From: Acidobacteriota bacterium
GTDB lineage: Bacteria > Acidobacteriota > UBA6911 > RPQK01 > JAJDTT01
Length of the DNA stretch: 64,000 nucleotides
NCBI GenBank assembly: GCA_965209055.1
Contig: OZ242374.1
Location: 512,001 to 576,000 of the forward strand
Reading direction: 5' to 3'
Positions 16,968 through 35,896 of the stretch are shown here, one piece after another. The notes under the pieces are model-generated. The model saw only the letters and a program-made list of their open reading frames with translations. It was not told where the DNA came from and did not search any database. Numbering within the stretch: the stretch's first letter is position 1; each line of letters opens with the position of its first letter. The translations under genes were made by a program, and so were the position numbers.

Positions 16968-19145
16968 CTACCCCGAAGCCCCTTCCATGGCAACGGGGCG
17001 CATCACGGGGACTTCGACAATCATTTCGGTGAACTCGCCGGGTTCGGTTTCCACTCGAATGGATCCTCCATGCTCCCGCACGATGTCGTTGGAGAGAGCA
17101 AGGCCCAGACCCGTTCCCTGGTCGGTGGGTTTCGTGGTAAAGAACGGATTGAAGATCTTTTCTACGATCTCAGGCGGAATTCCGTTCCCATTGTCCTTGA
17201 TTCGGACCTCGATCCGGTCTTCGAGACGCCGGGTGGCGACCCACAGAGTCGGCATGTAGTCGAAAAAGCCTTTCCCCGCCTCGATCGCCGCGCGCCGTTT
17301 CTGATCGGTGGCGTAGCAGGCGTTGCCCACCATGTTCAGAAAAACCCGGCCCATGTCCTGCGGAACGACTTCGAACTGACCGGCCTCCGGGTCCAGACTC
17401 ATCTCCATATGGAGCTGGAAATCGGGATCGGTCGCCCTCGCGCTGTGGTAGGCAAGACGGGTGTGCTCGTCGAGCAGGTTGTTGACGTCCGTCACCTGCC
17501 ATTCGCCCGAGCCACGGCCCATCATAAGCATGTCGTGAACGATCCGGTTGGCCCGTTCGCCGTGCTGGTGGATGCGGCGTAGATTGTCGGTGATGTCCTG
17601 AATCAGCTCCGCGACCAGCTCGCGGTCGTCCTTACTCAGTTTCTCGCCTTCTTCTTCCAGGACTTCCTGGAGTTCCTCCAGGAGTTCCTGCGACGCCTCC
17701 GCGAAGTTCTTAACGAAGTTCAAAGGATTCTTGATCTCATGGGCAACGCCCGCGGTGAGCTCACCGAGCGCCGCCAGCTTTTCACGCATGACGATCTGGT
17801 CCTGAGCTTTCCGCAAGTCGGCGAGGACGCTCTCCAACTGTTCGTTCTTACCCCGCAATTCCTCTGCCAGCTTCTCCACCAGGTTCAGACGCTGGACCTC
17901 CAGCGCGTGGCGCCGAAACACCTCCAGGGCGGCGGCCATGTCGGCCACCTCGTCCCTTCCTTCGATCTCGACCTTGCCCTCCAGTTCTCCCCCGGCCATT
18001 CGCCGCATGCGCTGCGACAACAGCGCCAGGCGGCGCAGCAGTATCCGTCCCACGATCAGCCAGGCGATGAGCACGGCGCCGACGATGCTGAGCCCGTTGA
18101 TGGCGACGAGGAGGACTCGGCCCGCCAGAATGGCTTGTGTGGATTCTTGAGTGTCGGCTGCCGCTCTCGCCTGAGACGCTTTCACCAACTCGTCGACGGC
18201 CGCCACCAGGTCAATGGCGATTCCGCGGTTCTCCGCCAAGAGGTCTCTCTGCCGCGCGGTCAGTCTCAATTGGCGGACCAGCAGATTGAGGCAGCCCTCC
18301 TCTCCGGCGCCCAACTCGAAAAGAAGTTGGAAGTCGGCGGAGATCTGCCCAAGCAATTCGGACTCTCCCAGCGACGACAGGCTCCTTTCGATGCGATTGC
18401 GAGACGCCTCGAACTTGTCTCGCAAAGGCTCGATCAGGAAGGCGTCCGAAACCGTGAAAGCACTGTCCAGAAGTTGCGTGGCGGTATTGGCGTCCGCCAG
18501 CAGATCGGTCAAGTGACGAAAGCGATCGAACTGATCTTCCGAGAAATGTTTCCAACGAGGAGCCGGAGGCTCCCCCAAGGTTCGGTGTCCCGTGATGGTG
18601 TAAAAGAATTGGTCATCCACGGTCGGGAAGATGACCCGCTGCAGGCGTCCTTGCAGATCCGCGAGTTCGGTGCGCAGAGCCGAACTCCGCTCGGCCAATT
18701 CGTAAATCGCCGACATGTCGGTTTCGATGGCCTCGATGTTCGATCTCAAGGTATCGGCGTGAGCGCGAATGCGCCGGAAACGTTCGTCGGCCGCATCCTG
18801 GCGCTCCAAAACGGCCAACTGCTCCTCGAGCGCCGTTTTCGACTCGTTGATGCTTGCCGCAACCTGGGCGAAGTCGTCGGTCGTTTCGGCGGTGGTCAGC
18901 CGAGGCGCAGCCGCGACCAGGGCGGCGCTGTACTGCGCCACACCGAACGCGGCCTCCAATTCCGGGAACCGAAGTTCATTGACCCGCCGCTGCAGATCGC
19001 CCACGCGGTCAAAGGAAAACCAGCCCACGAGACTCGCGGCGATCGTCAGGGCGACGGCGCCTCCGATGGTGACGTAGAGCTGCGTCGAGATCCGAAAGCG
19101 ACTCTGCAGCAGACTACCGAGCAAGCGGTTCAGTCGTTCGATCAC
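16968..19145 (-). CDS. Membrane sensor histidine kinase: TorS-like helical periplasmic domain, HAMP, HisKA, HATPase
   Basis: Two TM segments around a long helical region; HAMP (EGRDEVADMAAALEVFR); H-box GVAHEIKNPL; N-box N..GNA; DNG.GI; FFTTK..GTGLGL. Confidence 0.9.
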   Translation of the reverse strand: MIERLNRLLGSLLQSRFRISTQLYVTIGGAVALTIAASLVGWFSFDRVGDLQRRVNELRFPELEAAFGVAQYSAALVAAAPRLTTAETTDDFAQVAASINESKTALEEQLAVLERQDAADERFRRIRAHADTLRSNIEAIETDMSAIYELAERSSALRTELADLQGRLQRVIFPTVDDQFFYTITGHRTLGEPPAPRWKHFSEDQFDRFRHLTDLLADANTATQLLDSAFTVSDAFLIEPLRDKFEASRNRIERSLSSLGESELLGQISADFQLLFELGAGEEGCLNLLVRQLRLTARQRDLLAENRGIAIDLVAAVDELVKASQARAAADTQESTQAILAGRVLLVAINGLSIVGAVLIAWLIVGRILLRRLALLSQRMRRMAGGELEGKVEIEGRDEVADMAAALEVFRRHALEVQRLNLVEKLAEELRGKNEQLESVLADLRKAQDQIVMREKLAALGELTAGVAHEIKNPLNFVKNFAEASQELLEELQEVLEEEGEKLSKDDRELVAELIQDITDNLRRIHQHGERANRIVHDMLMMGRGSGEWQVTDVNNLLDEHTRLAYHSARATDPDFQLHMEMSLDPEAGQFEVVPQDMGRVFLNMVGNACYATDQKRRAAIEAGKGFFDYMPTLWVATRRLEDRIEVRIKDNGNGIPPEIVEKIFNPFFTTKPTDQGTGLGLALSNDIVREHGGSIRVETEPGEFTEMIVEVPVMRPVAMEGASG

Positions 19146-20326
19146 GGCGCCGCTTCCAGCATTGAGCTGATGGGACGATATTGACCGTCACGACCGATTA
19201 CGGTCAGATAAACGGCATCCGATCCCTGGTTGTCCTGGTCGCCGAAACGAAGCCGGAACCCACCGAGGTCCATCATTCCGGCTTGGCGAAAACCGTCCAG
19301 AAAACCGGCTCGACTAATCTCACCCCCGGACTGCTTCAGGCCGGCAATGGCCAGGCGCCCGGCCAGATAGCCTTCGAAGGAGATGAACCCGGGAACCACG
19401 CCGGATGCGTAGGCAGCAAGGGCGCGATTGTAGTCGCGGACGATGGAACGCGATTTGTCGGTCGGGAAGGGCACGACCTGAGTGACGTAAACACCGGCGC
19501 CGGCGGAGCCGAGCTCCTTCGCCAACGCGTTGCTGCCGACGAAGGAGATGTTCATGAATACGGCTTGGAGGCCCGAAAACCGGGCCCAGGAAATGAATGT
19601 GGCGAGAGGTTTGTACGCGCCGATGAGAATCACGGCTTTGGGGTCCCCGTCGTTGATGTCCAGGAGAGCCATCTTTACCGCCAGGGTATTGCGAGGGTAA
19701 AGGCCGATGGCCACCGGCGTCATATTCCGTCGATCGAGCGCGGCCCGAACCCCACGGTATCCGGCCCGGCCGAAGGAATCGTCCTGGAACAATACGGCGA
19801 TCCGCTTGATTCCCATGTCCTCGGTCAACCTGGCTACCATTTCTTCGGTCTCCTGGTTGTAGGAGGCCCGAAGGTTGATGACGTTGCTCCACTCGGCGGC
19901 GCGCAGGAACTCGGCACCCGTGAAGGGGGCGATATACGGCACGCTGGCGTCCGCGGCAACCGGTACGGCCGCGCGTGAGGTGGGTGTGCCGACTGCGCCG
20001 ATGAGAGCGAAGACCTCTTGTTCCCTGATCAGAGTGACGGTATTGGCAACGGCGGCCTCCGGTTCGTAGGCATCGTCCAGCGACGTCAACTCCAGCCGAC
20101 GGCCATCGATGCCGCCCGCCCGGTTGACCTCGTGGAAGGCGGCCTGGATGCCGAGACGCATGCTGATACCCAACTCCTGGGCAGGACCGCTGAAAGCGGC
20201 GGACTGTCCGAAGAGAATGCGGTCGTCGGAAACGCCGGGTTCCTGCGCCGGAACCGGCAATGCTGTCAGCAACCATGCGGCCACCAAAATGAGGACGCCG
20301 GCCGGCCGGCCGGACCATCGCTTCAC
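19142..20326 (-). CDS. Type I periplasmic binding protein (LivJ/branched-chain amino-acid-binding-like), no adjacent ABC permease or ATPase
   Basis: Signal peptide; GQSAAFSGP, GGIDGR..L...DD.YEP, GAVGTPT, RASY.QE, QDDSFG, EGYLAG. GTGA overlaps with both rsbW and the kinase. Confidence 0.9.
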   Translation of the reverse strand: MKRWSGRPAGVLILVAAWLLTALPVPAQEPGVSDDRILFGQSAAFSGPAQELGISMRLGIQAAFHEVNRAGGIDGRRLELTSLDDAYEPEAAVANTVTLIREQEVFALIGAVGTPTSRAAVPVAADASVPYIAPFTGAEFLRAAEWSNVINLRASYNQETEEMVARLTEDMGIKRIAVLFQDDSFGRAGYRGVRAALDRRNMTPVAIGLYPRNTLAVKMALLDINDGDPKAVILIGAYKPLATFISWARFSGLQAVFMNISFVGSNALAKELGSAGAGVYVTQVVPFPTDKSRSIVRDYNRALAAYASGVVPGFISFEGYLAGRLAIAGLKQSGGEISRAGFLDGFRQAGMMDLGGFRLRFGDQDNQGSDAVYLTVIGRDGQYRPISSMLEAAP

Positions 20327-20742
20327 CGGACCCGCTCCTTGACCAGAGTCACGTGGTTTCTCCCCCCCTGACGCCGATAGCGCAAGTTGTCCACCAGGCT
20401 GCGTACGATATGGATCCCGAGGCCGCCGATGGTGCGTTCCCCTAATTCCACATCCAGATCGGGCTCGGGAGCCTCGCTGGTCGGATCGAACGGATGGCCG
20501 TTGTCCACGATTTCGACGGTGAGGGACTCACCTTCCGCGGTCAGCGTGATCTCGATCTTCTCGAGGTTCTTGGTCTTCCCGTGGGTCATGATGTTGAGTC
20601 CCAGCTCTTCGATCACCAGGTTGATTTGAAAGATCATGTCGGACGGCCATTTTTCCGCGTCGCCGAACTGCTCCACAGCGGCCGTAATCACACTCAGTTC
20701 CTCAACTCTGGGGTCGATTTCCAGGGACAGCTTTCGGCTCAA
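20323..20742 (-). CDS. Anti-sigma factor / Ser kinase, RsbW-like (copy 1)
   Basis: L..EELGLNI..HG, DNG.PFDP, R..GGLGI..VR...D...Y.R..G.N. Confidence 0.9.
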   Translation of the reverse strand: MSRKLSLEIDPRVEELSVITAAVEQFGDAEKWPSDMIFQINLVIEELGLNIMTHGKTKNLEKIEITLTAEGESLTVEIVDNGHPFDPTSEAPEPDLDVELGERTIGGLGIHIVRSLVDNLRYRRQGGRNHVTLVKERVR

Positions 20743-20909
20743 CGACGCCTCTCGCTCAGACTGGACCTCATAAGGGAGACGACGGGCGACTGCGCCTTGT
20801 CACCGGCGTTATTCCCGTCCGCTCCGAATTTGGCTGGTCATCGGGCATGCCCCGACAGCGCGGCACAGCAGACTCGACCGGCATCCACTCCGGTCTCCAC
20901 GCCGGGATC

Positions 20910-21248
20910 CTATCCGCCATGCTTGGCGACGGCTTCGGACCGGGAGGCATGAGTGGGGATGATTCTGCTGAAACCACTGATCTCAAACACCTCGTTGATG
21001 GTATCGGTGAGCGAGCACACAACGAGCTTTCCACCTCGTCCCTGCAGCTTCTTGGCAATCATCAGAAAAGCTCGAAGGCCGGCACTGCTGATGTAGGAAA
21101 GATCTTGTAAGTCCATGATCAGGAGACGATCGTCCTCCCCGATTGCCTCGTGGAGCGCCTCCTCGAATTCGCGGGCATTGGTGCCGTCGACACGGCCCTC
21201 CGCTCGGGTGATCAAGATCCCTCCTTCCCGCTCGGCGTGAACCTCCAT
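20910..21248 (-). CDS. STAS-domain anti-sigma antagonist, RsbV-like (copy 1)
   Basis: GRVD..NA.EF, DL..LSYISSAGLR (phospho-acceptor Ser motif), EVFEISGF. Confidence 0.9.
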   Translation of the reverse strand: MEVHAEREGGILITRAEGRVDGTNAREFEEALHEAIGEDDRLLIMDLQDLSYISSAGLRAFLMIAKKLQGRGGKLVVCSLTDTINEVFEISGFSRIIPTHASRSEAVAKHGG

Positions 21249-21484
21249 TGCTCTGACTCCCGGATATTGTGACCTAATCCTTCCGACAATTTGCCGCGAT
21301 ATTACCACCGGTGGACCTTCAAGCGAAACCACCACGCCACGGTCGGCAGATGGTTTTCGTTGCCGGGAAATGGTACGGAAGGCTGAATGCCACTGATGAG
21401 GCCGACTCCTTTTCCCGCTTGAGGACGCCCGAGCCGGCGATTTGAGCGGCGCGGCTGCCTGATGCCGAGGGAACCCGGCGACCC

Positions 21485-22735
21485 TCAAAAATTGTAAATC
21501 AAGGCCAATTCGACGAAGCTGTCGCGCCGAGTCAAATAGGTGAGATCCACTTCCTGGATACCCCGAAAGGCGATCGACTCCAGACGCAGAGACCACTGAT
21601 CCGAGATGCGCCGGTTCAATTCCAGAGTCAGCACCTGTCCTGAACTGTCGGCGTCTCGCAGAATGCTGGCGAGAAGCTCGGTGCTCTGAACGTCGTTGAA
21701 GGCTATCCTCGCGGCCAGGAAAAAATCATTCTGGAAGATGTTGGTGGCATATTGGCGCCGGTCGTCGTAGTTCCATTCGCTGAGCAGCGTAAGATCCAAC
21801 GCCGAGCCGGATACGGAATAGAACGTGTACTCGCCGCCAAACGTGGAAGCCGAGTAGTCTTCTTCCACGCCGAGAAGGTTTTGGGCGCCGGTTCGCCGAA
21901 TCGCCTCGAGCTTGAACAGCCAGGACCCGGCCGTCACCTGGGCGTCCAGCCCGAACTGCCGGATCTGCTCGTAGTATGGGACCAAGGCCGGTTCTCCGGA
22001 GAGGCCCGGATCCAGAGTCAGAAAGGGATCTCGACTGGTGCCGTCGAAAACGCTCATGCCCAGGTCGAGAGGCCCGAAACTGCGACTGTAGCGGCCGGCT
22101 AAATCCAGATGCCACTGCTTGGCGTCGCTCTCATAGGAAATCATGTCGTTGTCCACAACAAACGGAAGTCGCAGACGGCCGAAGCGGCCTGGAAAGGTGC
22201 GGCCACGGTGATACGTCAGGCCGAAGACTTCCGCCGTTCCCCAATCGCCGGAAAAAGTAAGGTGGGCCATGGGTTGGCCCAGCTTGGGTTCCTTGTAGGG
22301 ATGTTCCACCAGGTCGATCTGGTTGACGATGTTGACCAGGTGGCGGGATTCGGTGACTCCCCAGAACACCCGGTCCACCCCTAGACGGAGCTCCCATTCG
22401 CTATTCGCGACGTCGCCGAACAGCAGAAGGTAGGCTTCACGCAGATCGACATGGGTTCGGCTCGGGTCCCCGGCGTCGTAACGAAAAAACGGCGCCAGAT
22501 TGAAGCTCCGGCCTCCATGGTCTTCGAGATAGAATTCGGGCTCGATGGCCAGACCGCTTGCGTGTGAACGCTGGCCGGGGTACGCCGCACTTTGGGGATG
22601 CCACCGGCTTTCAAGGCTCACGCGCCCCGAAGTCTCGTGCCTGACGATCTCGGCCCGGAGTCCGCCAATACAGACTGGGATGAGAAGCCCCGCAGTGCAG
22701 AATCGCGCGCACCGAATGACGAGACGGCGGGGCAT
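21485..22735 (-). CDS. Outer-membrane beta-barrel protein associated with MMPL/LolA-like loci
   Basis: Signal peptide; R.H.DLREA, G..RVFWGV.ES.HLV.I.NQ.D, K.GQPM, alternating beta-strands, terminal YNF. Confidence 0.75.
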   Translation of the reverse strand: MPRRLVIRCARFCTAGLLIPVCIGGLRAEIVRHETSGRVSLESRWHPQSAAYPGQRSHASGLAIEPEFYLEDHGGRSFNLAPFFRYDAGDPSRTHVDLREAYLLLFGDVANSEWELRLGVDRVFWGVTESRHLVNIVNQIDLVEHPYKEPKLGQPMAHLTFSGDWGTAEVFGLTYHRGRTFPGRFGRLRLPFVVDNDMISYESDAKQWHLDLAGRYSRSFGPLDLGMSVFDGTSRDPFLTLDPGLSGEPALVPYYEQIRQFGLDAQVTAGSWLFKLEAIRRTGAQNLLGVEEDYSASTFGGEYTFYSVSGSALDLTLLSEWNYDDRRQYATNIFQNDFFLAARIAFNDVQSTELLASILRDADSSGQVLTLELNRRISDQWSLRLESIAFRGIQEVDLTYLTRRDSFVELALIYNF

Positions 22736-23559
22736 TAACGAATCCGTTGCAGCCCGGTGCGGGTGAAGTCGCGATCGTTGAGCTTGGTCCGGAATTCATA
22801 TTCCGTCCATGTCAGAACGGTGCTTTTCCCGGTGAGATGATTCACCATCGTCATCTCGCCCGCCTGCCAGTAGCGATCCAGGTACTGCCGGTAGTTCCTC
22901 AAGGTGAGGGTCTTCAGGTGCGAATCCTTGCGATCGTAGTATTCCACCTTCCAAACGCGAAACGCGTCTTTGTCCTGCCAGACCAACTGCCTGCGGTAAC
23001 CCGATTTCTTGTCCACAGGGACGCGCTCGGAGACGGTGCACGTCAACTCGCCGCAAGGCTCGTCCCGCAGGTATCGGTAGCTGAATCTCTCCACTTCCTG
23101 CGCGCTCATGTCCTCATAGGCGAACTCGCTGCCCATGAAGGAGCCGGAGCGGTTCGACGAACTGATCCGTTTCACCCGCTTCAGCGCCGGGAGATAGAGC
23201 CACTGGTCGTCCGCCTTGTCGCGATGGGCGTGGATCAGGAAAGCCGTTCCCTTGACGTCCCGCGGCTCATCGAAGACGAACATGCTCTTGTCTCCGTCTC
23301 CGGGCACTTCGAGCACCCTGACCCGGAGTTGGCGCCGACTCTCCTTCCCCTGCTTGTTCCGCAACACCATGGTCTGTTGAGCCGTAAAATTGCCGAATCC
23401 GTCTCCCTGCTCCCGCGCTTCGAGCGCAATCTTCAGGCCGATTTCTTCGGGGGAAGCGTCGTCGGAACGGGCGAACGCCGGCGAAGCCAGACAGGCCATG
23501 ACGACGACGGCAGGAACCACATGCGCGAGGGGAGACCGGACGGAACAAGAGTAAATCAT
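22735..23559 (-). CDS. Outer-membrane lipoprotein-sorting (LolA-like) periplasmic carrier
   Basis: Signal peptide; F..P.DVKGT.FL, DDQWLYLPALKRVKRI, SGSFMGSEFAYED, YYDRK...LK, M.N..TGK.T. ATGA overlap with the MMPL gene. Confidence 0.9.
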   Translation of the reverse strand: MIYSCSVRSPLAHVVPAVVVMACLASPAFARSDDASPEEIGLKIALEAREQGDGFGNFTAQQTMVLRNKQGKESRRQLRVRVLEVPGDGDKSMFVFDEPRDVKGTAFLIHAHRDKADDQWLYLPALKRVKRISSSNRSGSFMGSEFAYEDMSAQEVERFSYRYLRDEPCGELTCTVSERVPVDKKSGYRRQLVWQDKDAFRVWKVEYYDRKDSHLKTLTLRNYRQYLDRYWQAGEMTMVNHLTGKSTVLTWTEYEFRTKLNDRDFTRTGLQRIR

Positions 23560-25859
23560 GATTTTCTCCGATCGAGGGCCATCAACAGAGGCGGCAGCAG
23601 AAAGAAATCGGCGAGAAGCGCGAACACTATGGTGATCGTGACCATGAGTCCGAGCGACCGGCTGACCTCGAATCCCGATGAAGCGAACACCAGGAAGCCG
23701 GCCGACAAGACCGCAGTCGTGGTCCACAGAGCCTTTCCGACAGTGTTGAATGTGGAACGCACGGCCGCGGCCGCATCCAGGCCCTGGCGGCGCCCCTTCA
23801 GATACTTGGTCAGGAAATGAATCGTGTCGTCTACGACGATACCGAACGCAATCGCGGTCATCACGGAACCGGCCAGACCCAGATTGCCCACCAGATAGCC
23901 CCAGAATCCGAAGCTCATTGCCGCAGGAATGAAGTTGGGAATCAGACTGATGAGTCCGTGGCGCACGCTCCGGAATATCAGGACCAGGATGAACGAGACG
24001 ATGGCCATGGCAATGATCGTCCCCCGCAGCATGCTTTCGATGTTTCGAAGAGAAAGGTGGGCAAAGACCACACTGAGGCCCGTGGCCGGCACGACTCGAT
24101 GGGGCAGGTTGGCGCGGAGCCAATCTTGAGCGCGAGCGTCCAACTCGCGCAGGCCCCGCGACGAAGAGTCACGGACCGTCACCGTCATGCGGGTCTCGGA
24201 CTTGGCGATGTCGATCCGGTTGTTCAGGTCATTGCCGAAGGGAAGCGACAGCTCGTAGACCAACAGGTATTGGGCCGCGAGTTCGGGGTCGTCCGGCAAC
24301 CGATAGTAACCGGGGTCGTCGCCGTGCATGTTCTTGTTCAGGCGTTTCATGATGTCCGGGAACGCCTGGACATGGGTCACTTCGGGTTGCGTGCGGTACC
24401 ATTCGGCGAATTTCTCGACGGCGCCCAGATATTCGGGATCGGTGATGCCGCCTTCCCGTCCCGCTTTCAGCGAATACTCCAGCGTATCCAAGCCGGTCAG
24501 GTTTTCGATGACGAAATCCGTATCGCGCCGGAACTGGTAGCGCTCGTCGAAATACTTGGGCCAATTGTCGCTCAACTGGTTGCGGGGGATGCCCATGACG
24601 AGGCCTATGGCGATGAGGGGAACGAACCAGAGCAGAAATCTGCGCTTGGCCACGACAAAGGCGCCGAAGCGTTCGAAGAAGAGAGTCTTTTCAGGGAGCA
24701 GCCGGCGCGCGCGCAGCGGCAGGATCGAAAGCACCGCCGGCAGAAGCAACATGGAATAAACGAAAGCACAAGAAACACCGAACGCCACCAGATTGCCCAG
24801 GACGCGAAACGGAGGCGAGTCCGAAGCGTTCAGGCTGAGAAAGCCGATCACCGTTGTGAGAGTCGTCAGAAATACGGGATAAGCATTGGTCCGCACGGAT
24901 GCCGCGATCGCGGCGTTCCTGCTCAAACCGCGGCTCATGCCCAGCAAGGTGCTGGTGACGATGTGAATTGAATCCGCAACGGCGACCGCCATCACGATAA
25001 TGGGTACCCCGGCATTGGTCGGACTCATCACGGTTCCGAGCCAGCCCGCCAACCCCATTGTCGTGTTGACGATGAATACGAGCAGGACCGAGATGGACAG
25101 GGTGGCAAGAAACGAGCGCAGAAGAATCGCGGCGGAGGCCGCGATCACCAGAAAAACGATGGGAACCAGGATCTGAAGATCGTCCTGTGTGGCTTCGGCG
25201 AAGGCGCGGTGCATGACGACATCGCCGGTCAGGAAATAGGCGATTTCAGGATGCCGTCCGCGAGCCTCTTCCAGAGCGGCGTTGAGATAGTCGGTGATCT
25301 CCGCCACCGCGGCGTCCGGATCTTCGGGCAGGACGAAATTGATGGTCAAGCCGCCGACGCGGCCGTCGGTGGAGACCAGGCGCCCGGCGATCTCGGAAGC
25401 ATTCAGCGCAATCGTCCGGATTCGGGCCAGGTCGGCATCGTTCAGAGACTGTGCGTCATCGACCAGCGGCTCGACCACCAGATCGTCCTCGACCGCTTCG
25501 CTATGGGAATAGTTGGTGAGGGAATCGACCCGTGTGGAATAGGGGGCGCCCCAGGCAGCTTCGGTCAGTTCCTCGATCGCCCCAAGCGCCTCGAGCGTGA
25601 ATACGGAACCCGCCCCGGGCGCAATGGCGATCAATGCCCTGTTGGATGCGGCATACGTGTTCTCCAGGGCATCGAATGCGGCGAGTTGAGGATTGTCTTC
25701 GTCGAACAGAATTCGGTAGTCGTTCGTGGTGGTGATGTACCGGGCACCTGCCGTCATGACCAGCATGACCACTGTCGCAACCACCAACACCGTCCAGCGG
25801 TGGTTCAGGACAACAGCAATGTAGCGGTCCAAGAAGGGCGACGTCATACCTTCGTTCAC
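23556..25859 (-). CDS. MMPL/RND family lipid transporter
   Basis: Two-repeat 12-TM layout; AVADSIH, T.LTT.IGF.SL..S..PPF..LG, GIVVDDTIHFL..Y. Confidence 0.9.
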   Translation of the reverse strand: MNEGMTSPFLDRYIAVVLNHRWTVLVVATVVMLVMTAGARYITTTNDYRILFDEDNPQLAAFDALENTYAASNRALIAIAPGAGSVFTLEALGAIEELTEAAWGAPYSTRVDSLTNYSHSEAVEDDLVVEPLVDDAQSLNDADLARIRTIALNASEIAGRLVSTDGRVGGLTINFVLPEDPDAAVAEITDYLNAALEEARGRHPEIAYFLTGDVVMHRAFAEATQDDLQILVPIVFLVIAASAAILLRSFLATLSISVLLVFIVNTTMGLAGWLGTVMSPTNAGVPIIVMAVAVADSIHIVTSTLLGMSRGLSRNAAIAASVRTNAYPVFLTTLTTVIGFLSLNASDSPPFRVLGNLVAFGVSCAFVYSMLLLPAVLSILPLRARRLLPEKTLFFERFGAFVVAKRRFLLWFVPLIAIGLVMGIPRNQLSDNWPKYFDERYQFRRDTDFVIENLTGLDTLEYSLKAGREGGITDPEYLGAVEKFAEWYRTQPEVTHVQAFPDIMKRLNKNMHGDDPGYYRLPDDPELAAQYLLVYELSLPFGNDLNNRIDIAKSETRMTVTVRDSSSRGLRELDARAQDWLRANLPHRVVPATGLSVVFAHLSLRNIESMLRGTIIAMAIVSFILVLIFRSVRHGLISLIPNFIPAAMSFGFWGYLVGNLGLAGSVMTAIAFGIVVDDTIHFLTKYLKGRRQGLDAAAAVRSTFNTVGKALWTTTAVLSAGFLVFASSGFEVSRSLGLMVTITIVFALLADFFLLPPLLMALDRRKS

Positions 25860-27028
25860 CAGGGACTCGATTTCGACGCCCGAACGTGGTCAGGCATCTT
25901 GTAACTCATCGCGCCCAACACGGCCTCGTCGTAGACCGAGATTTCGAGCATCTGGCAAAAATTCTCCGACCTGATCAACTGCTGGCTCTTGAGCAGATGC
26001 TGAAAACGTTGTTTCAACCGGTAAGCGAACAGCACACCCAAGGTATTCGACTTTGGAAACTGCAACTGGTCGGCAAGCCTGTTTCCGATCAGGGAGCGTG
26101 ACAGCCGGTAGGCCAGGTCCTTCACGGCGACCTGTTCCTCCGGGTCTTCGATTCCCGCCGTCAGGGGAATCGCCTCTACCAGCGCGTTGGCCATGGTGGC
26201 CGAATCACTGTCCGGGGTCGGCTCGCACATGTGGGCTACATCGAATATTTCGCGCGCGTGGCTTTCACTGGAAAAGAGGATGGACTCGGGCACCCCCATG
26301 ACGTACCCGGCGTATCGCCAGACTTGCAGCACACTCTCTCGCTCCTCCCCGGAATACCTGGCCCCCACGGAAATCGAATGCTGGAGCAGGCGCATGGAAA
26401 AGACGGTGGTGGCGAAACCCAGGTGCGCCGCGCTGATCGGCGTACCCCAAGCATCGGCATCCCAAGCGTCGGAATTCGCCAACAGGTGCCTCACTCGGGC
26501 GTGAACGAAGCGAAGGCGCATGGAGAGCTTCCAACCATCTCCATCCCTCCGCAGACCTCCGGGGAAAAACACCTCCAGCAGATGGCGGTTGTTCTGCATC
26601 AGGCGCCTTCTCGCGGTCAAGGGGCTCAAGACGCGTCCCGTCGTGGCGAAAGACTTGGCGATCAGCGTCGCAAATCCCTCGATCAGCACGCCCGTGACAA
26701 AGGCGACGAGGATTTTCGTCGTGTTCAGGTGAAAGGCCCGGACGCCGGGACGAAAAGCTTCGTAGTCGAACCAGGGGGGATCTTCCAGATTCTCGAAAAA
26801 ACCGCGCAGTGACTGCGGCGCGGCGCGAAGACCCTCTTCGTCCTGGTCGATCCCGGCTCGGATGAATCGATGCAATACGTGGGGCGGCAACGAGGAGACC
26901 TCGTCCATCACCGGATCGAGCGCGGGGTCGCCGACGGTCGTGTGCCGGATATAGCTGTCGGCAAGCGTCTGGTCGTAGCGCCGGGCCTCCCGGTAGCCCT
27001 CGACATACGCCGAGGGGGATTGCAGCAT
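25856..27028 (-). CDS. MpaB/Lcp (DUF2236, rubber-oxygenase-like) heme oxygenase
   Basis: GDPALD, PPWFD...F..G..F, TG...RR, R.VHARVRHLL (heme-ligand His motif), W....WG.PIS, WRY.GYVMGV.E. No signal peptide; GTGA overlap with the MMPL gene. Confidence 0.85.
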   Translation of the reverse strand: MLQSPSAYVEGYREARRYDQTLADSYIRHTTVGDPALDPVMDEVSSLPPHVLHRFIRAGIDQDEEGLRAAPQSLRGFFENLEDPPWFDYEAFRPGVRAFHLNTTKILVAFVTGVLIEGFATLIAKSFATTGRVLSPLTARRRLMQNNRHLLEVFFPGGLRRDGDGWKLSMRLRFVHARVRHLLANSDAWDADAWGTPISAAHLGFATTVFSMRLLQHSISVGARYSGEERESVLQVWRYAGYVMGVPESILFSSESHAREIFDVAHMCEPTPDSDSATMANALVEAIPLTAGIEDPEEQVAVKDLAYRLSRSLIGNRLADQLQFPKSNTLGVLFAYRLKQRFQHLLKSQQLIRSENFCQMLEISVYDEAVLGAMSYKMPDHVRASKSSPW

Positions 27029-27153
27029 TCGTCGATCTCCTGACAGTCTGCCTGACTGATGGACAGCAGCGGATCTTCAGGACGCTCCGTCCGGAGAACT
27101 GTCCCGGTCGAAGGCCATTCCAGATTCGACGGTGAATCTCCAGGCCCGATCAA

Positions 27154-27169
27154 TGCGCCGCGCGTGCCA
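27154..27169 (-). promoter_or_regulatory. Possible sigma-54 (-24/-12) promoter upstream of the oxygenase-MMPL operon
   Basis: Minus strand TGGCACGCGCGGCGCA: perfect TGGCACG and correct GG-N10-GC spacing, but the TT before -12 GC is missing. Confidence 0.25.
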
Positions 27170-27419
27170 GCCAATCACATGCGGATGCGCCGAAAGTGCC
27201 CGCCGTAAAGGGTTTTATGCTCGATCCAATTCCCTGGACCGAGTCAGCAACAAATCATAGCACACAGTAACGACCCCCCTCCCATTTTCAGGAAGGCCGC
27301 TGCCGGATCAAATATCCCGGCCGCAGGATTGATCAACCGGCGGTTTCCGGCCCCATGCACGTTGTCGCATTCCGGTCATTGATCCAGAGTCCGGGAGTCT
27401 GATCGAACCCGTCAACCGG

Positions 27420-28697
27420 CTACGGGCGCTCCGCACCAGGCGTCCCGGATCCCGCTATGACGCGAGCCGCCATCTGACCGGAACGAACTGCGCTCTCGAT
27501 GGTTGCGGGCAGACCCGTGTCGATCCAATCCCCGGCCAGAAACAGGTTGGCGAACTCGCTTCCGGTCGAGGGACGGCGCCTCACCTGGCCGGGCGTCTGC
27601 GCGAACGTGGCGCGCTTTTCCTTGACGACGCGGCAGCGGGGTATCCTTTCGCGCTCCTGGCCCAACGCCGCCGCAACGTCGTTCCAACTCCTGCGGGCAA
27701 TGACTTCTGCCGGCTCGCCTGCCAGTGCGTCCGCTGCGCTGACGGTGACGGAAGCCACGTCGCCGCGAATGAAGAGCCACTGCGCGGTTCCCCCGATCAG
27801 TCCGAGGAGAGGAAGCTCCGGCGGCATTCCGGCCGGTTTGGACAACCGGAAATGAGCGTTGACGATGGCGTGGGTTTCGCCGGGGACGGACAACCCCGGC
27901 ACCAGCTCCGCCGCAGCCAGAGGAGGAACAGCCAGTACCACGGACCCGCCTTCCCGCAATCGTATTCTTTCGGAGCCGAAGTCCAGACCGTTCGCGCGGC
28001 GGCCCCGGTAGCTGATCCTGCGTAATCGGCGGCCGAACCGAACCGTCGCGCCCCTTTGGTGAAGGAACTTCAGGGCCGGGTCCACGAAGGCGGCGGAGAG
28101 TCCTGTCTTGGCGATCCGCGGCCGGCAGGCCGCCTCCCCTCGGGCGAATGTCTCACGCAAAACGGACCACAGGAGCCTCGCCGCCCCGGATCGAGCCGGC
28201 GTATTCAATGCACCGACCGCCAGCGGTTTCCAGAATCTCTCGAAGAGAACGCCGGTTCCTCCGACGCAGTCGGTCACGGTCGCGTCGGCACCCGCCGTGA
28301 CGAACCGCAGCGCCGAAAAGTAATTCCAGACCCTTGTGTCCGGCACCCGCCGCCCGGACTTCAGGATCCACCACGGGAGTCGTCCGGCATTCGGCCGCAG
28401 CAGCCACCTTTGACCCGTGCGCAAATCCAGGAACGGAAAGCAGGCGGAAGCCGGGCCGATCAGAAAGTCGGCGGCCTCGATGTCAGCCAGGTAGCGCATC
28501 GCGGCGCGGTTGCCGCTCAGCAGCAGATGGTTGCCGTTGTCTATCGTGCGCTCAAGCTTGGCATCGGCGTAGGAGCGGCAGCGGCCTCCCGCATGGCCGC
28601 CCGCTTCGTAGAGCGTCACGTCCCGGCCTCGCCGCACCAGCGACACCGCGGTGGCGAGACCCGCCAAACCGGCGCCGATGACGTGGGTTCGGGGCAC
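27420..28697 (-). CDS. hpnE: Hydroxysqualene dehydroxylase (FAD-dependent)
   Basis: VIGAGLAGL, GGRCRSY, DNGNHLLLSGN, EKRATF, LAGDW..TGLPATIESAVRSG; follows hpnCD. Confidence 0.92.
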   Translation of the reverse strand: MPRTHVIGAGLAGLATAVSLVRRGRDVTLYEAGGHAGGRCRSYADAKLERTIDNGNHLLLSGNRAAMRYLADIEAADFLIGPASACFPFLDLRTGQRWLLRPNAGRLPWWILKSGRRVPDTRVWNYFSALRFVTAGADATVTDCVGGTGVLFERFWKPLAVGALNTPARSGAARLLWSVLRETFARGEAACRPRIAKTGLSAAFVDPALKFLHQRGATVRFGRRLRRISYRGRRANGLDFGSERIRLREGGSVVLAVPPLAAAELVPGLSVPGETHAIVNAHFRLSKPAGMPPELPLLGLIGGTAQWLFIRGDVASVTVSAADALAGEPAEVIARRSWNDVAAALGQERERIPRCRVVKEKRATFAQTPGQVRRRPSTGSEFANLFLAGDWIDTGLPATIESAVRSGQMAARVIAGSGTPGAERP

Positions 28698-28709
28698 GGT
28701 GAAACTCCG

Positions 28710-29642
28710 TCAGCACAGACCGTAACGCAGAGCGAGCAGCAGCTTCCGGAACCGCGTCAGCCGGATGCCGACGTCGAGCCGCGTCCATCCCCGCTCTTCC
28801 AGGCGATCGAGCAATTCCCGGTACACCGCCATCATGAGAACGGCAGGGCGAATCCTCCGCCATCCGAATTCGGCGATGAGTCTTTCGGTTTCGGCGTAGT
28901 AACCTCGAGCGAGACCGGCCAGTTCGGCGCAGGCTGCGCTAAAGCCTGGATGACTCAGGGTTGCGTTCAACGACGTGGCGGCGACGCCGTGCTTGCTCAG
29001 CAACTCCTGTGGCACGTAGAGCCGATGCAACGCCGCATCCGCCTTCAGGTCACGAAGGATATTCGTCAGTTGCAAAGCGTTCCCCAGCGTCTCGGCGATT
29101 TGAAATCCGGGGTTGCGCGGCACGCCGAAAGCATGGATGGACAGCCTGCCGACAGCTCCCGCGACCTTGCGGCAATAGTGCAACAAATCATCCAGGTCCT
29201 GCATCCGCACGGTGGGCCCGGCATCGATTTCCATACCCTCGATCACCGCCAGGAATTCCTCTTGCGGCAAGTTGTAACGGCGCACCGGTTTCAACAGTGC
29301 CCTCGTGGTCGGCCAATTCGGCTCCCCCGCATAGAGCCGGTCAATCTCTTGCCTCCATGCCGCCAGCGCTCGCCTCTTGTCGGCGTCTTCGCCCGGTTCG
29401 TCGGCAATGTCGTCGACTTCCCGGCAGAACGCATAGATGGCGTAGATTGCACGGCGCCGCTCCGCCGAAAGCGCTCTCATGCCCCACAGGAACGACGTGC
29501 CCGAACGCGCTACGACACGATTCACGTGATCCGCGGGATTGATCCGACCGCCGGGCCGGCTTCCCGGTCCGGCTTGCGATCGAGATACCGTCCTCACGTT
29601 GTCAGCCTTCCCGCGGCGGAAACCTTCATGTCGCACAACCAC
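28710..29642 (-). CDS. hpnD: Presqualene diphosphate synthase
   Basis: SGTSF..GMR.L, YAFCREVDDIAD, YC..VAGAVG, LG.ALQLTNILRD, RLY.P. Confidence 0.92.
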   Translation of the reverse strand: MVVRHEGFRRGKADNVRTVSRSQAGPGSRPGGRINPADHVNRVVARSGTSFLWGMRALSAERRRAIYAIYAFCREVDDIADEPGEDADKRRALAAWRQEIDRLYAGEPNWPTTRALLKPVRRYNLPQEEFLAVIEGMEIDAGPTVRMQDLDDLLHYCRKVAGAVGRLSIHAFGVPRNPGFQIAETLGNALQLTNILRDLKADAALHRLYVPQELLSKHGVAATSLNATLSHPGFSAACAELAGLARGYYAETERLIAEFGWRRIRPAVLMMAVYRELLDRLEERGWTRLDVGIRLTRFRKLLLALRYGLC

Positions 29643-29690
29643 TGCGACGTCGGCCCTCCAGCCCGCGTTTCTTCATCGGAAACACGACGA

Positions 29691-30578
29691 TCATGTTACT
29701 TGTTCGGCTTCGGTGCGCCGACGCCGGACCCTCACGAGCAAGGTCCGGCCGATTCCACGCCAAAAGCAGGCCGCGTACTGAACCTTGGTCAGCACGACCC
29801 GTTCGGCCAAAGGGTCCCGCCGGCGCAACTCCCTGCTGAGCTTCCGGGCGATGGCTACGATCACGGCCGTTTCCATGGCGAAACGAAGGTTGCGAAACCG
29901 GTCCGGCAGGCGATCCGCCGACTCCAACAACGTCTCGGTTGCATCGAGGCACCGATTCAATACTCGCCTGAGCGCCGGAGTCGAACGCCTGCGTCCCAGC
30001 ACCTCGACACCGGCCCCGGCCGCCGCCATCCAGTTCTGAGGAAGATAGACCCGGTTCAACGAACGGTAGTCAGGTCCGCAGTCCTGCAGGTGGTTGAGCA
30101 CCTGGAGCGCGTTGCAAAGGGCGTCGCAGGCGGGATACGCGGCCTTCGATTCGCCATGAAGGTCGACCAGGTAGCGCCCCACGGGCGCCGCCGAAAGATC
30201 ACAGTAACCGATGAGATCGTTCCAGTCGGCATACCGCAGTTTGGTCGCGTCCTGAATGAAGGCGCGCGTCAGATCGACACAATGCCGATGGGTGACCTGC
30301 GTGATCTCCAGACTGCGGCGGACGGCGTGAGCTTTGCCAAAAGCCGGATCACCTGTTTCGGCGCCCCTCACCGCTCTGGCGAAGCCGTCCAGTCGTTCGA
30401 TCTTGTCTCCCGGATCCAGGTCGGGGTTGTCGGCAATATCGTCGATCGCCCGGGCATAGGCATAGAAGGTTGCAATATGAGGTCTCAGGTGCGCCGGCAG
30501 CAACCAGGAGCCGACGGGGAAGTTCTCATCCGCCGCAGCTTTGCCGGACGGCGTCTCCATGGCAGCGGCCCTGTCCAT
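29691..30578 (-). CDS. hpnC: Hydroxysqualene synthase
   Basis: ENFPVGS.L, Y.YAR..DDIAD, AF.QD..K.RY, YC..SAAPVGR, C.ALQ.LNHLQD, RVYLP. Confidence 0.92.
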   Translation of the reverse strand: MDRAAAMETPSGKAAADENFPVGSWLLPAHLRPHIATFYAYARAIDDIADNPDLDPGDKIERLDGFARAVRGAETGDPAFGKAHAVRRSLEITQVTHRHCVDLTRAFIQDATKLRYADWNDLIGYCDLSAAPVGRYLVDLHGESKAAYPACDALCNALQVLNHLQDCGPDYRSLNRVYLPQNWMAAAGAGVEVLGRRRSTPALRRVLNRCLDATETLLESADRLPDRFRNLRFAMETAVIVAIARKLSRELRRRDPLAERVVLTKVQYAACFWRGIGRTLLVRVRRRRTEAEQVT

Positions 30579-30757
30579 CGCGAACCCATAGGCGACCGAT
30601 CAGATCGCTCGCGTGTTTGACAGCACCGGGGGTTGGGAGCCTGGAACTGCCAACGTCAGGCTATGGCGAAAGTTGCCGTCCCTACCAACCGCCGCGCCGG
30701 CGTGGCGCGCTTGGAGCCGGGAGGAGTTGGAGCGCGCCGCCATGGCGGATCCCGGCG

Positions 30758-31177
30758 TCACTCGGCCAACTCTTTGACCAGGGTCAGGTAGTTTCTACCT
30801 CCGTCGCGGCGATAGTGCATCTCGTCCATCATGGTGCGCACCAGGTAGACACCCAGACCGCCCACGGCACGGTCTGCGACTCCGGAGTCCAGATCGGGCG
30901 AGGGCGCATCCTCCAACGGATCGAAGGGAAGGCCATTGTCCACGATCTCGATGGTGAGCGTTCCCGGTTCCGAGGTCAAAGTGATCTCGATCTCATGGAG
31001 ATCGTCGGTCCTGCCATGGTTGATGATGTTGAGTCCCAACTCCTCGAGCACCAGATTGACTCGAAAGACGAGTTGCGGGGGCCATTTCTCGGCGTCGCCG
31101 AATTCTTCCACGGCGGCTGTGATCGTATCCAATTCTTCGGCCCTGGGTTCAACCTTCAGGGCCAGCTTCCGGCTCAA
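30758..31177 (-). CDS. Anti-sigma factor / Ser kinase, RsbW-like (copy 2)
   Basis: LVLEELGLNIINHG, DNG.PFDP, GGLGVYLVR.MMD...Y.R; same length (139 aa) as copy 1. Confidence 0.9.
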   Translation of the reverse strand: MSRKLALKVEPRAEELDTITAAVEEFGDAEKWPPQLVFRVNLVLEELGLNIINHGRTDDLHEIEITLTSEPGTLTIEIVDNGLPFDPLEDAPSPDLDSGVADRAVGGLGVYLVRTMMDEMHYRRDGGRNYLTLVKELAE

Positions 31178-32364
31178 CGATCGCTCTCCCTTCGATAGAG
31201 CACCATGCAGGTGATGTCGTCCGATTGAGGAGTATCCCCGACGAAGTCCCTGACCGCCTCGAAGACCGCGTTGTTGGCCTCCTCGGAATCTTTCGGGGGC
31301 CCATCCGCAAAGATCTCGAACAGACGTTCCGTACCGAACTCTTCGCCGTCGTCGTCCATGGCCTCGGTGACGCCGTCGGTGTAGAAAATCACGGTGTCTC
31401 CGGGTGAAAGGACCACGGTGTTTTCGTGGAAATCGAGGTCGGGAATCACGCCCAGGGCGATCCCATGAGTGAGAGGAAGCAGAGAGGAGCGTCCGTCGGC
31501 ATGGACGACCAGCGGGGAGTTGTGTCCGCCGTTGGCGTAGGTCAGTTCTCCGCTGGCCGGATTGTACACCGCGTACAGGAGGGTGACGAACATGGCGGCG
31601 TCGTTGTCCTCGTCAAGCAGGTTATTGACCTCCCCCAGGACCCGGCCCGGATCCAGAGTTCCGATGGCGGCGCCCTTGAGCAGAGTCCGGCTGGACATCA
31701 TGAAGAGCGCGGCAGGCACTCCCTTGTCCGAAACGTCCGCAATGGCCAGGCCGACCCGGCCTTCGTGGAGGTAGATGACATCGTAAAAATCTCCGCCCAC
31801 ATTGCGAGCCGCCTCCATGCTGGCGGACACTTCGTAGTCGGTGCCCTTGGGGAACTGACTGGGAAGGATGGATTGCTGCATCTGGTTGGCGACATTGAGT
31901 TCGTTCTGCAACGCGACCAGCTTGTCCCGCGAAGCCAGGGCCTCGCGCCACTCCATCATGTGCTGGACCGTCCGGTCGATGGTGATTCGAAGGTCTTTGA
32001 AATCCAGCGGCTTGGTGACGAAGTCAAACGCTCCCCGGTTCATCGCCGTCCGGATATTCTTCATGTCCCCGTACGCCGAAATGATGACGGAACGGATGTT
32101 GGGATCGACCTTGGGGATCTGCTGCAACAACGTGAGCCCATCCATTTGGGGCATGTTGATGTCTGACAGCACCATGTCGATGTCCTGCTCCTCGTTCAGG
32201 CGTTCGAGAGCTTCGACACCATTTCGGGCAAACACGAAAGTGTACCGGCCGGAGCGTATTGGCCGCCGCATACGCTGAAGCATGAGCGGCTCAAGATCCG
32301 GTTCGTCGTCCACCACCAGGATCTTGCACGGACGGTTCATCAGGTCCAAATCATTCGTTCCCAC
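31174..32364 (-). CDS. Response-regulator receiver fused to SpoIIE/PP2C phosphatase (RsbU/RsbY-like)
   Basis: REC: ILVVDDE, SDINMP.MDG, SAYGD, GAFDFVTKP. PP2C: VGGDFYD, ADVSDKGVPAA, NGGH, YTDGVTEA, QSDDIT. Confidence 0.92.
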   Translation of the reverse strand: MGTNDLDLMNRPCKILVVDDEPDLEPLMLQRMRRPIRSGRYTFVFARNGVEALERLNEEQDIDMVLSDINMPQMDGLTLLQQIPKVDPNIRSVIISAYGDMKNIRTAMNRGAFDFVTKPLDFKDLRITIDRTVQHMMEWREALASRDKLVALQNELNVANQMQQSILPSQFPKGTDYEVSASMEAARNVGGDFYDVIYLHEGRVGLAIADVSDKGVPAALFMMSSRTLLKGAAIGTLDPGRVLGEVNNLLDEDNDAAMFVTLLYAVYNPASGELTYANGGHNSPLVVHADGRSSLLPLTHGIALGVIPDLDFHENTVVLSPGDTVIFYTDGVTEAMDDDGEEFGTERLFEIFADGPPKDSEEANNAVFEAVRDFVGDTPQSDDITCMVLYRRESDR

Positions 32365-32536: not shown

Positions 32537-32896
32537 TCAAGGGTACTTGGGGACTGCCTGCTCGCCAAGGGCGGCGAGCGCATCGGAACGGGTCTCAAGG
32601 GTCGGGATGATCCGGTTGAAACCACTGATCTCAAAGACCTCGTTGATTGATTCCGAGAGCGAACAGACCACGAACTTCCCGCCCCGCCCCTGGAGAATTT
32701 TTGCAGCCATCAAAATGACCCGAAGACCCGCGCTGCTGATGTAGGAGAGAGACTGCAGATCCAGGATCAACAAACTGTCATCCTTGCCGAGCGCCGCATG
32801 CAGGGCATTCTCGAATTCACGCGCGTTGGCGCCATCGATACGGCCCACGGCCCGGGCGATCAAGGCGCCACCTTCCCGCTCCGCGTGAACCTCCAT
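32537..32896 (-). CDS. STAS-domain anti-sigma antagonist, RsbV-like (copy 2)
   Basis: MEVHAEREGG..., LSYISSAGLR; 83 of 112 positions identical to copy 1 by my hand count. Confidence 0.9.
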   Translation of the reverse strand: MEVHAEREGGALIARAVGRIDGANAREFENALHAALGKDDSLLILDLQSLSYISSAGLRVILMAAKILQGRGGKFVVCSLSESINEVFEISGFNRIIPTLETRSDALAALGEQAVPKYP

Positions 32897-33085
32897 CAAA
32901 TAGACTCCCTGAAAATATGGGCCGGATATTCGCTTCTGCCCGGGGACAACGTAACCGCACGGAATCATAGCAAAGCCATTCCCGGTTCACAATTCGCTCC
33001 AAACAGCCTGGCCGGCGAATTTCGTCCGGCCGGTTGCGTGGGTTTCTCAAGGAACATTGACACATGACGTCTCCCGGGAGCCTCG

Positions 33086-34501: not shown

Positions 34502-34514
34502 GGGAGGGTCGGAC

Positions 34515-35891: not shown

Positions 35892-35896
35892 TTGCT

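Follow-up and report, generated by a model that had tools for sequence, protein, structure and literature searches.

Squalene synthesis genes beside a putative haem oxygenase and a trans-envelope transporter in an Acidobacteriota bacterium: a possible route of squalene oxidation and export

Introduction

Bacterial squalene is a precursor of hopanoids, sterols and C30 carotenoids, and in the three-enzyme route HpnC, HpnD and HpnE lead from farnesyl diphosphate (FPP) through presqualene diphosphate (PSPP) and hydroxysqualene to squalene. In the DNA considered here, a stretch of 64,000 nucleotides from an Acidobacteriota bacterium (GenBank assembly GCA_965209055.1, contig OZ242374.1, positions 512,001 to 576,000; hereafter the window), the hpnC, hpnD and hpnE genes are followed on the same strand by four overlapping genes for an oxygenase of the DUF2236 (MpaB/Lcp) family, a resistance-nodulation-division (RND) transporter, a LolA-like periplasmic carrier and an outer-membrane beta-barrel. 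The question raised by this locus is what becomes of the squalene. The answer preferred here, to which a probability of roughly 45% is given for the chain as a whole, is that the genes belong to a horizontally spread biosynthetic cassette for the oxidation, probably with cleavage, of squalene made in the cell and for export of what results, the steps being haem-dependent cleavage of a C=C bond and export by the RND, LolA-like and barrel proteins. Taken separately, a link of the oxygenase-transporter unit to squalene is highly probable, judging from gene neighbourhoods.

Arrangement of the locus

All genes from 32968 down to 16968 are located on the minus strand and form a single-strand array. 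The lipid genes within it are as follows.

29691..30578, minus strand: hpnC, squalene synthase of the three-enzyme route (TIGR03464 270.8 bits, cut-off 250.45; PF00494)
28710..29642, minus strand: hpnD, presqualene diphosphate synthase (TIGR03465 312.6 bits, cut-off 278.6)
27420..28697, minus strand: hpnE, hydroxysqualene dehydroxylase, dependent on flavin adenine dinucleotide (FAD) (TIGR03467 389.3 bits, cut-off 283.05)
27029..27419, minus strand: intergenic gap between hpnE and the oxygenase gene, 391 bp
25856..27028, minus strand: DUF2236/MpaB-Lcp haem oxygenase, 390 amino acids (aa) (PF09995 MPAB_Lcp_cat 68.6 bits, cut-off 23)
23556..25859, minus strand: RND inner-membrane transporter, HAE3-like, 767 aa (PF03176 MMPL 97.3 bits, cut-off 20.5)
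22735..23559, minus strand: LolA-like periplasmic carrier with a signal peptide, 274 aa (PF17131 206.8 bits, cut-off 30)
21485..22735, minus strand: outer-membrane beta-barrel, DUF1302-like, 416 aa (PF06980 26.7 bits, cut-off 23.2; marginal)

Seven genes had been placed at these coordinates and on this strand by the original prediction, and their identifications proved right, with profile scores above the cut-offs and that of the barrel marginal. The order it described, hpnC-hpnD-hpnE and then four overlapping genes, can be read directly in the sequence, where the four genes 3' of the gap overlap by 4, 4 and 1 bases (GTGA at 25856-25859, ATGA at 23556-23559 and TAATG at 22733-22737); the gap, put at about 390 bp, was measured as 391 bp. 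A long open reading frame (ORF) at 22735-24123 is an over-extended form of the LolA-like gene, and the ATG at 23559 precedes the signal peptide.

Co-occurrence with genes of squalene and isoprenoid synthesis

Related loci were collected by aligning the oxygenase with its homologues (20 sequences) and carrying out a single pattern scan of a species-level genome collection. The scan gave 430 pattern matches, 334 of which encode a relative of the oxygenase, and the best 80 of these 334 confirmed loci were analysed with up to 10 kb of each flank, so that all counts out of 80 given here concern the closest relatives, which are mutually related. Every one of the 80 loci (numbered with the prefix L) comes from a metagenome-assembled genome, taxon names being those of the record titles, and seven phyla are represented: Acidobacteriota, Gemmatimonadota, Latescibacterota, Nitrospirota, Verrucomicrobiota (Opitutales), Pseudomonadota and Binatota. 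Genes were called with a custom ORF script and by tblastn with the window proteins and representatives of recurrent neighbour clusters (E<=1e-8, query coverage of at least 50%). Two ORFs, 'unk490' and 'unk459', antisense to the barrel and hpn genes, were discarded as artefacts of greedy ORF calling.

The RND and LolA-like genes both accompany the oxygenase gene in 70 of the 80 loci, and at least one of the RND, LolA-like and barrel genes does so in 74; two of the remaining six loci are contigs shorter than 5 kb. HpnC/D/E-type genes lie within 10 kb of the oxygenase gene in 15/80 loci, with all three present in 12 of these, and a single-enzyme Sqs-like gene (at least 50% identity to the query) is found at the same distance in 23/80. 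The Sqs-like protein belongs to PF00494 and its best solved relatives over the full length are squalene synthases (7wgh, E 4e-18), while its score is under the TIGR01559 cut-off. The two systems never occur together in one locus, and either of them is present in 38/80. In 37/80 loci the 10-kb flanks also include a gene for IspH, Dxs or an HMG-CoA reductase-mevalonate kinase fusion, and in 46/80 an isoprenoid gene of any kind. A survey of neighbourhoods for hpnCDE together with DUF2236 and MMPL genes had been proposed with the original prediction, and the co-occurrence was found to recur without being universal.

According to the authors' own estimate, made without a computed control, 1-2 squalene synthase genes per about 5 Mb would leave fewer than 1 in 80 random 21-kb stretches adjoining one, and the 38/80 found is more than chance. 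That two mutually exclusive squalene synthase systems stand beside the same unit is the strongest evidence for squalene, or a close derivative of it, as the relevant metabolite.

The placement of the squalene genes varies from the same strand upstream to the same strand downstream or downstream and convergent. In one locus the Sqs-like gene is inside the transporter operon, between the LolA-like and barrel genes on the same strand (L035:14634-15545), and in another the barrel gene is directly followed by hpnCDE (L050). The end of the IspH gene is 3 nt from the oxygenase start in L044, and in gammaproteobacterial loci a gene for a 761-aa HMG-CoA reductase-mevalonate kinase fusion (L029:7710-9995) ends 9 nt before the oxygenase gene; this fusion is also found in L030, L037, L038 and L042 and, more distantly, in L061. 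L017 keeps the hpnCDE-gap-unit order with an oxygenase of only 63% identity. On the oxygenase tree (maximum likelihood, quick mode) a minimum of 10 changes is required for the hpn label and of 13 for the sqs label, starred branches forcing at least 5 and 9 of these respectively; the squalene-gene association has therefore been gained or lost many times. These neighbourhoods strongly support the functional connection of squalene synthesis to the oxygenase-transporter unit which had been proposed at the outset, since two alternative synthase systems as well as IspH, Dxs and the HMG-CoA reductase-mevalonate kinase fusion recur in several phyla and in varied arrangements.

Other genes were noticed near the unit. 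A 465-aa protein of the flavin amine-oxidase family is encoded between the RND and LolA-like genes in 6/80 loci (L014-L016, L018, L020 and L036; e.g. L016:13567-14964); it passes no NCBIfam equivalog, its best matches, protoporphyrinogen oxidase and HpnE, both being far under their cut-offs, and it may be an additional tailoring enzyme. Two loci (L034:15235-16725 and L019:14402-15268) have no DUF1302-like barrel, and hpnD alone scores above its equivalog cut-off there, hpnC and hpnE being unmatched; in L034 a TolC-like OEP gene is immediately upstream of hpnD. Proteins with a GPP34 (Golgi phosphoprotein 3) domain adjoin the unit in L019:7948-9618 and L025:13818-15845, the latter ORF, possibly a merged call, carrying also a cytochrome P450 domain. 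Convergent to the barrel gene in L003-L008 and L039 (e.g. L007:17376-19088), in a Gemmatimonadota/Latescibacterota clade without nearby isoprenoid genes, is a conserved ORF of some 570 aa which neither Pfam nor NCBIfam models match.

Absence of a cyclase near the unit

No squalene-hopene cyclase domain (PF13243/PF13249) was found in 111 window ORFs, 97 of them at least 150 aa long and outside 17000-32300 (E<=1e-8) and 14 within this interval. The window and the flanks of the related loci showed no shc/hpnF, hpnH or hpnG, and the window no gene of the CrtN/CrtP type. In the related loci 1395 ORFs were clustered, and 171 previously unassigned representatives (present in at least two loci or at least 400 aa long) were scanned at E<=1e-4, 1e-10 or 1e-15 depending on the batch, 114 shorter single-locus representatives being left out; no cyclase, squalene epoxidase or CrtN-type desaturase was found among the 171 neighbour representatives of the 80 loci. 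The statement of the original prediction that there is no cyclase stands for the 64-kb window and for 10 kb on either side of the unit in the related loci, and it is limited to these rather than extended to the whole genome. Catabolic genes are not recurrent near the unit: an acyl-CoA dehydrogenase of the L019 type occurs in 2 loci and an enoyl-CoA hydratase of the L030 type in 3.

The oxygenase

The oxygenase matches LcpK30, a haem b rubber oxygenase of Streptomyces (5o1l/5o1m), with E 4e-8 and about 19% identity, and in an ungapped alignment H176, R142, Q145 and N146 correspond to H198, R164, K167 and T168 of LcpK30. In Lcp, H198 is the proximal haem ligand, R164 the conserved arginine and K167/T168 the distal lysine and threonine, and the deposited chain has the same numbering. 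Across 20 close homologues H176 and R142 do not vary, and in a diverse set of 61, with identities as low as 24%, each is at least 90% conserved. The AlphaFold2 model of the oxygenase is confident, with a mean predicted local distance difference test score (pLDDT) of 93.5, and in a Foldseek search it has the all-helical Lcp-like fold (5o1l_A, E 6e-8, template modelling (TM) score 0.68/0.70). Among the matches listed the only other one above TM 0.2 is t-anethole oxygenase of Stenotrophomonas maltophilia (8s1j, E 7e-3, TM 0.39-0.52), a weak similarity to an enzyme whose substrate is a small aromatic compound. Both Lcp and t-anethole oxygenase are named alkene-cleaving oxygenases in their structure entries; the latter is a haem-dependent alkene-cleaving enzyme. 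By analogy with the chemistry of these solved relatives, the window oxygenase is inferred to be a haem b enzyme that cleaves C=C bonds.

The likeness to LcpK30 thus comprises PF09995, the all-helical fold and the equivalents of the proximal histidine and R164. Lcp, however, is a secreted enzyme for the breakdown of poly(cis-1,4-isoprene) outside the cell; the window oxygenase has no signal peptide and is encoded among biosynthetic genes. By inspection, a signal peptide and a hydrophobic N-terminal segment are absent, and residues 6-31 form core helices with pLDDT of 94-98; with its N-terminus predicted to be in the folded core, the oxygenase is expected to work in the cell, on a lipid of the cell's own making. 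Within the same Pfam family, fungal MpaB/MpaB' of mycophenolic acid synthesis carries out a biosynthetic oxidative cleavage of a farnesyl-derived chain (PMC6900556); it is likened here by description only and differs in being eukaryotic and bound to the endoplasmic reticulum, with a prenylated aromatic compound and not a free triterpene as the substrate.

Conservation within the subfamily is striking, with 59-94% identity across the 80 loci, and two chromosomes which carry the cassette (OZ220706.1 and OZ241897.1) are 93-94% identical to the window over the oxygenase. At E<=1e-3 the wider DUF2236 family comprises 2521 representative clusters, of which 169 remain at E<=1e-30. A search of the ESM Atlas with the oxygenase returned generic MpaB-family clusters only, and six longer DUF2236 relatives scanned as possible fusion proteins gave no substrate hint, one of them carrying cNMP-binding and methyltransferase domains. 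A homologue is present in a cultured methanotroph, Methylovulum psychrotolerans (WP_088617768.1; the cluster representative is 48% identical). As described in PMC6797691 and PMC5658616, Lcps are b-type cytochromes which cut the double bonds of poly(cis-1,4-isoprene) to give aldehyde and methyl-ketone ends; squalene appears in them only as an analogue or in references. A preprint (10.64898/2025.12.11.692455) lists DUF2236 among the known haem families.

The transporter

RND pumps are exporters as a rule, which speaks against a role of this one in import. Its best NCBIfam model is TIGR00921 (HAE3) with 164.7 bits, under the cut-off of 351.9. The nearest solved relative is HpnN (5khn, E 9e-6; also 6wu0), yet by curated scores the pump is not HpnN (TIGR03480 74 vs 751.85; NF052374 23.7 vs 1100). 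The LolA-like protein matches a structural-genomics entry (3bk5, E 1.4e-82) and has two invariant cysteines, C169 and C174. The barrel was modelled by AlphaFold2 with about 18 strands at a moderate pLDDT of 67.8, and its Foldseek matches are porins and AlgE with TM up to 0.56.

A complex of the LolA-like protein with the barrel was predicted with a score of 0.56, the best control giving 0.00. The mark of 0.56 is reached by 116/157 solved complexes and 2/215 mismatches, and among those reaching it scores of 0.60 or less are seen in only 18/157 solved complexes and in both mismatches. At least 91% of contacts agree between the runs, and the pLDDT of the partner is at least 85. The model gives weak support to a pairing of the two proteins.

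The gap and the regulatory genes

The gap upstream of the oxygenase gene contains an extended -10-like motif, TGTGCTATGATT (window 27251-27262, minus strand). Together with the ribosome-binding site it is conserved by alignment in L001, where the motif has one mismatch, and in L002, and partly in L017. A consensus scan found neither promoter nor terminator in the gap and did not report this motif, and its totals were not above those of shuffled sequences (promoters 5 vs 2.9, terminators 10 vs 10.6). No Rfam match was obtained in 16000-34000 at E<=0.1, and the fold z-score of a putative 222-nt leader (-0.23) does not indicate a structured element. On the strength of the motif and the conserved ribosome-binding site, the oxygenase-transporter unit may have a promoter of its own in the gap.

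The lipid genes are bracketed on the same strand by two partner-switching sets, one composed of STAS, response regulator-PP2C (RR-PP2C) and HATPase_c_2 genes (30758-32968) and the other of STAS, kinase, Peripla_BP_6 and HAMP histidine kinase genes (16968-21596):

32537..32968, minus strand: STAS-domain protein of the anti-sigma antagonist type, first gene of the array (PF01740 69.3 bits)
31174..32364, minus strand: response regulator-PP2C (SpoIIE) phosphatase fusion (PF00072 87 bits and PF07228 185.9 bits)
30758..31177, minus strand: HATPase_c_2 anti-sigma-type serine kinase (PF13581 92.4 bits)
20910..21596, minus strand: second STAS protein (PF01740 75.1 bits on residues 120-222; TIGR00377)
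20323..20742, minus strand: second HATPase_c_2 kinase (PF13581 85.6 bits)
19142..20326, minus strand: periplasmic binding protein, Peripla_BP_6 (PF13458 187.8 bits)
16968..19145, minus strand: HAMP sensor histidine kinase (PF02518, PF00512, PF00672)

The true start of the second STAS gene is probably downstream of 21596, because the ORF as called overlaps the barrel gene. The first STAS gene has an upstream counterpart in L001 and L002, and the RR-PP2C fusion was met again close to the unit elsewhere. A hand count put the binding protein (identity of at least 55%) and the histidine kinase, in many cases accompanied by the RR-PP2C fusion, near the unit in about 20/80 loci from four phyla, a recurrence which suggests a sensory input common to the cassettes.

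Spread and surroundings of the cassette

The oxygenase tree does not follow taxonomy: Acidobacteriota are spread over several separate starred clades, the same holds for Latescibacterota, and Opitutales stand beside Nitrospirales with a support of 81 in the SH-aLRT (Shimodaira-Hasegawa-like approximate likelihood ratio test), the branch being unstarred. The proteins of the cassette are unusually conserved, those of the LolA-like kind being 64-80% identical between phyla, and transposase or group II intron genes are found within 10 kb in at least seven loci. Horizontal transfer of the cassette is the simplest reading, and this conservation together with the course of the tree suggests a niche-specific trait passed horizontally.

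Sulfatases and Kelch, LRR, NHL, FG-GAP and BNR proteins abound in the flanks, a content typical of host-associated marine bacteria. The window itself has genes for one FG-GAP repeat protein, one sulfatase and three BNR_2 proteins (33086-37945, 2570-6691 and 53241-54563). At E<=1e-8 Pfam gave nothing for two large ORFs, 47500-50460 and 50457-53195. The interval 12054-16856 groups genes for a transglutaminase-like, an alpha-E domain and a circularly permuted ATP-grasp protein, between which that of an ammonium transporter is placed. Among the related loci, polyketide synthase-type ORFs (ketosynthase and acyltransferase) are found at the edges of two from Latescibacterota (L010:1-2570 and L012:1-4090), and a 1170-aa leucine-rich-repeat protein is encoded upstream in L001:2-3514.

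Comparison with known systems

The nearest characterised system to the transporter is AmeABCD of Castellaniella defragrans, which consists of an HAE3 RND protein, a DUF1302 barrel, a DUF1329/LolA-superfamily protein and a fourth protein, and is needed for monoterpene tolerance (PMC6394551). The likeness is that an HAE3-type RND protein, a LolA-superfamily periplasmic protein and a DUF1302 barrel are encoded together, in AmeABCD as a system acting on terpenes. The differences are that AmeA has 605 aa against 416 for the window barrel, that AmeB is of the DUF1329 type with 451 aa against 274 aa of the PF17131 type, that the gene order is another one, and that the system serves tolerance during monoterpene catabolism and is unlinked to an oxygenase of the DUF2236 family. 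No fourth protein of the AmeC type (COG4447) is encoded within 21485-27028, BNR_2 proteins being at least 15 kb away.

Hopanoid (hpn) clusters are similar in that the window hpnCDE genes are true equivalogs and that, among solved RND pumps, HpnN comes nearest. Genes for IspH and Dxs close to those for squalene are likewise a usual feature of hopanoid clusters. The differences are that no shc/hpnF, hpnH or hpnG was found in the window or in the flanks of the related loci and that the RND pump is not HpnN by the cut-offs; HpnN moreover works without LolA-like or barrel partners (PMC6394551). The aryl polyene clusters (ApeL/ApeM/ApeN) have their own RND pump and LolA-like proteins, proposed to place a lipid in the outer membrane (PMC8253772); likened by description only, they differ in their polyketide-like lipid and in a LolB-like ApeN in place of the barrel. 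Another cyclase-free use of squalene made by HpnCDE is the C30 carotenoid route with CrtN-type desaturases (PMC9907078), whereas the partners in the window are a haem oxygenase and a transporter and no CrtN/CrtP-type gene.

Proposed mechanism

By family assignment, HpnD, HpnC and HpnE would make squalene from farnesyl diphosphate. The DUF2236 protein, a putative haem b oxygenase in the cytoplasm or associated with the inner membrane, would then oxidise squalene or a late intermediate, most probably by using O2 to split a single C=C bond into an aldehyde and a methyl ketone, in the manner of its solved relatives. At the inner membrane the product would be picked up by the HAE3-like RND pump, whose gene is translationally coupled; the LolA-like protein would ferry it over the periplasm and the DUF1302-like barrel would pass it into or through the outer membrane, as the families and the AmeABCD and ApeLMN precedents suggest. 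From their position and recurrence, the two partner-switching sets and the binding protein-histidine kinase pair probably control the genes.

Several points weigh against this mechanism. No isoprenoid gene lies within 10 kb in 34/80 loci, all 13 of Nitrospirota among them, and the 80 loci, being closest relatives, are non-independent. The gap is 391 bp long and possibly has its own promoter, and co-transcription of hpnCDE with the unit is therefore unproven; a cyclase or another consumer of squalene may be encoded elsewhere in the genome. The distal residues K167/T168 of Lcp are not kept, Q145/N146 standing there and being invariant within the subfamily, and no paper with an Lcp-family enzyme acting on squalene was found in the open-access literature searched. 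The direction and cargo of the RND pump are inferred from its family, and its membership in HAE3 is under the curated cut-off.

Alternative explanations

The first alternative leaves the squalene whole: in the way that HpnN serves hopanoids, the transporter would bring uncut squalene, or a different triterpenoid made elsewhere, to the outer membrane, and the DUF2236 protein would act without cleavage, in epoxidation or hydroxylation, in turnover of excess lipid or in haem-based sensing. HpnN is indeed the best solved relative of the pump (5khn E 9e-6, 6wu0), the distal Lcp residues are not kept, so that the chemistry may differ, and the flavin amine-oxidase gene inside the unit in 6/80 loci hints at further tailoring. 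Nevertheless, the HpnN models score far under their cut-offs (74 vs 751.85; 23.7 vs 1100), both solved relatives of the oxygenase, Lcp and t-anethole oxygenase, are named alkene-cleaving in their entries, and the oxygenase gene is the first, translationally coupled gene in 70/80 loci, as would fit a committed enzymatic step. Transport of an intact triterpenoid is considered unlikely.

According to the second, the linkage in the window is incidental, with hpnCDE feeding a hopanoid or other triterpenoid through a cyclase located elsewhere and with the unit serving as a separate detoxification or efflux system for hydrophobic compounds, like AmeABCD, a monoterpene tolerance pump (PMC6394551). The 391-bp gap with its conserved -10-like element and the 34/80 loci without nearby isoprenoid genes are in keeping with such a separation. 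It is opposed by the 38/80 loci in which one of two alternative squalene synthase systems is found within 10 kb, in varied arrangements and across phyla, by the Sqs-like gene within the transporter operon of L035 and the precursor-supply genes which abut the oxygenase gene, and by the hpnCDE-gap-unit order kept in L017 at 63% oxygenase identity, which together make a chance association improbable.

Import of external, for example host-derived, isoprenoids by the barrel, LolA-like and RND proteins for cleavage and catabolism, the alternative named in the original prediction, has in its favour that Lcp is a catabolic enzyme for polyisoprene (PMC6797691, PMC5658616) and that a few loci carry genes for acyl-CoA dehydrogenase or enoyl-CoA hydratase, but it is disfavoured and very improbable, as the oxygenase, unlike the secreted Lcp, has no signal peptide by inspection and its N-terminus is in a confidently folded core, and as the recurrent neighbours are biosynthetic (IspH, Dxs, HMG-CoA reductase-mevalonate kinase, squalene synthases) and not those of beta-oxidation.

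Implications

The preferred answer, oxidation and probable cleavage of endogenous squalene followed by export of the product, is assembled from parts of known families; their combination and the implied fate of squalene are undescribed in the open-access literature searched. A bolder form of it, which is doubtful, would make the DUF2236 protein the first dedicated squalene-cleaving dioxygenase, which with the RND, LolA-like and barrel proteins would make and export a new class of acyclic apo-triterpenoids (aldehyde, ketone or acid) as a surface lipid or diffusible signal, the cassette having moved among uncultured marine bacteria which occur together and belong to seven phyla or more, since its product would matter in their common niche. 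If oxidation and export of squalene are true, a fourth fate would be added to those of squalene, in which oxidation by an Lcp-family haem enzyme and dedicated export would constitute a new triterpenoid branch. The large and mostly uncharacterised bacterial DUF2236 family would gain a physiological substrate, and the poorly understood transporters composed of HAE3 RND, LolA-like and DUF1302-like proteins would gain a cargo.

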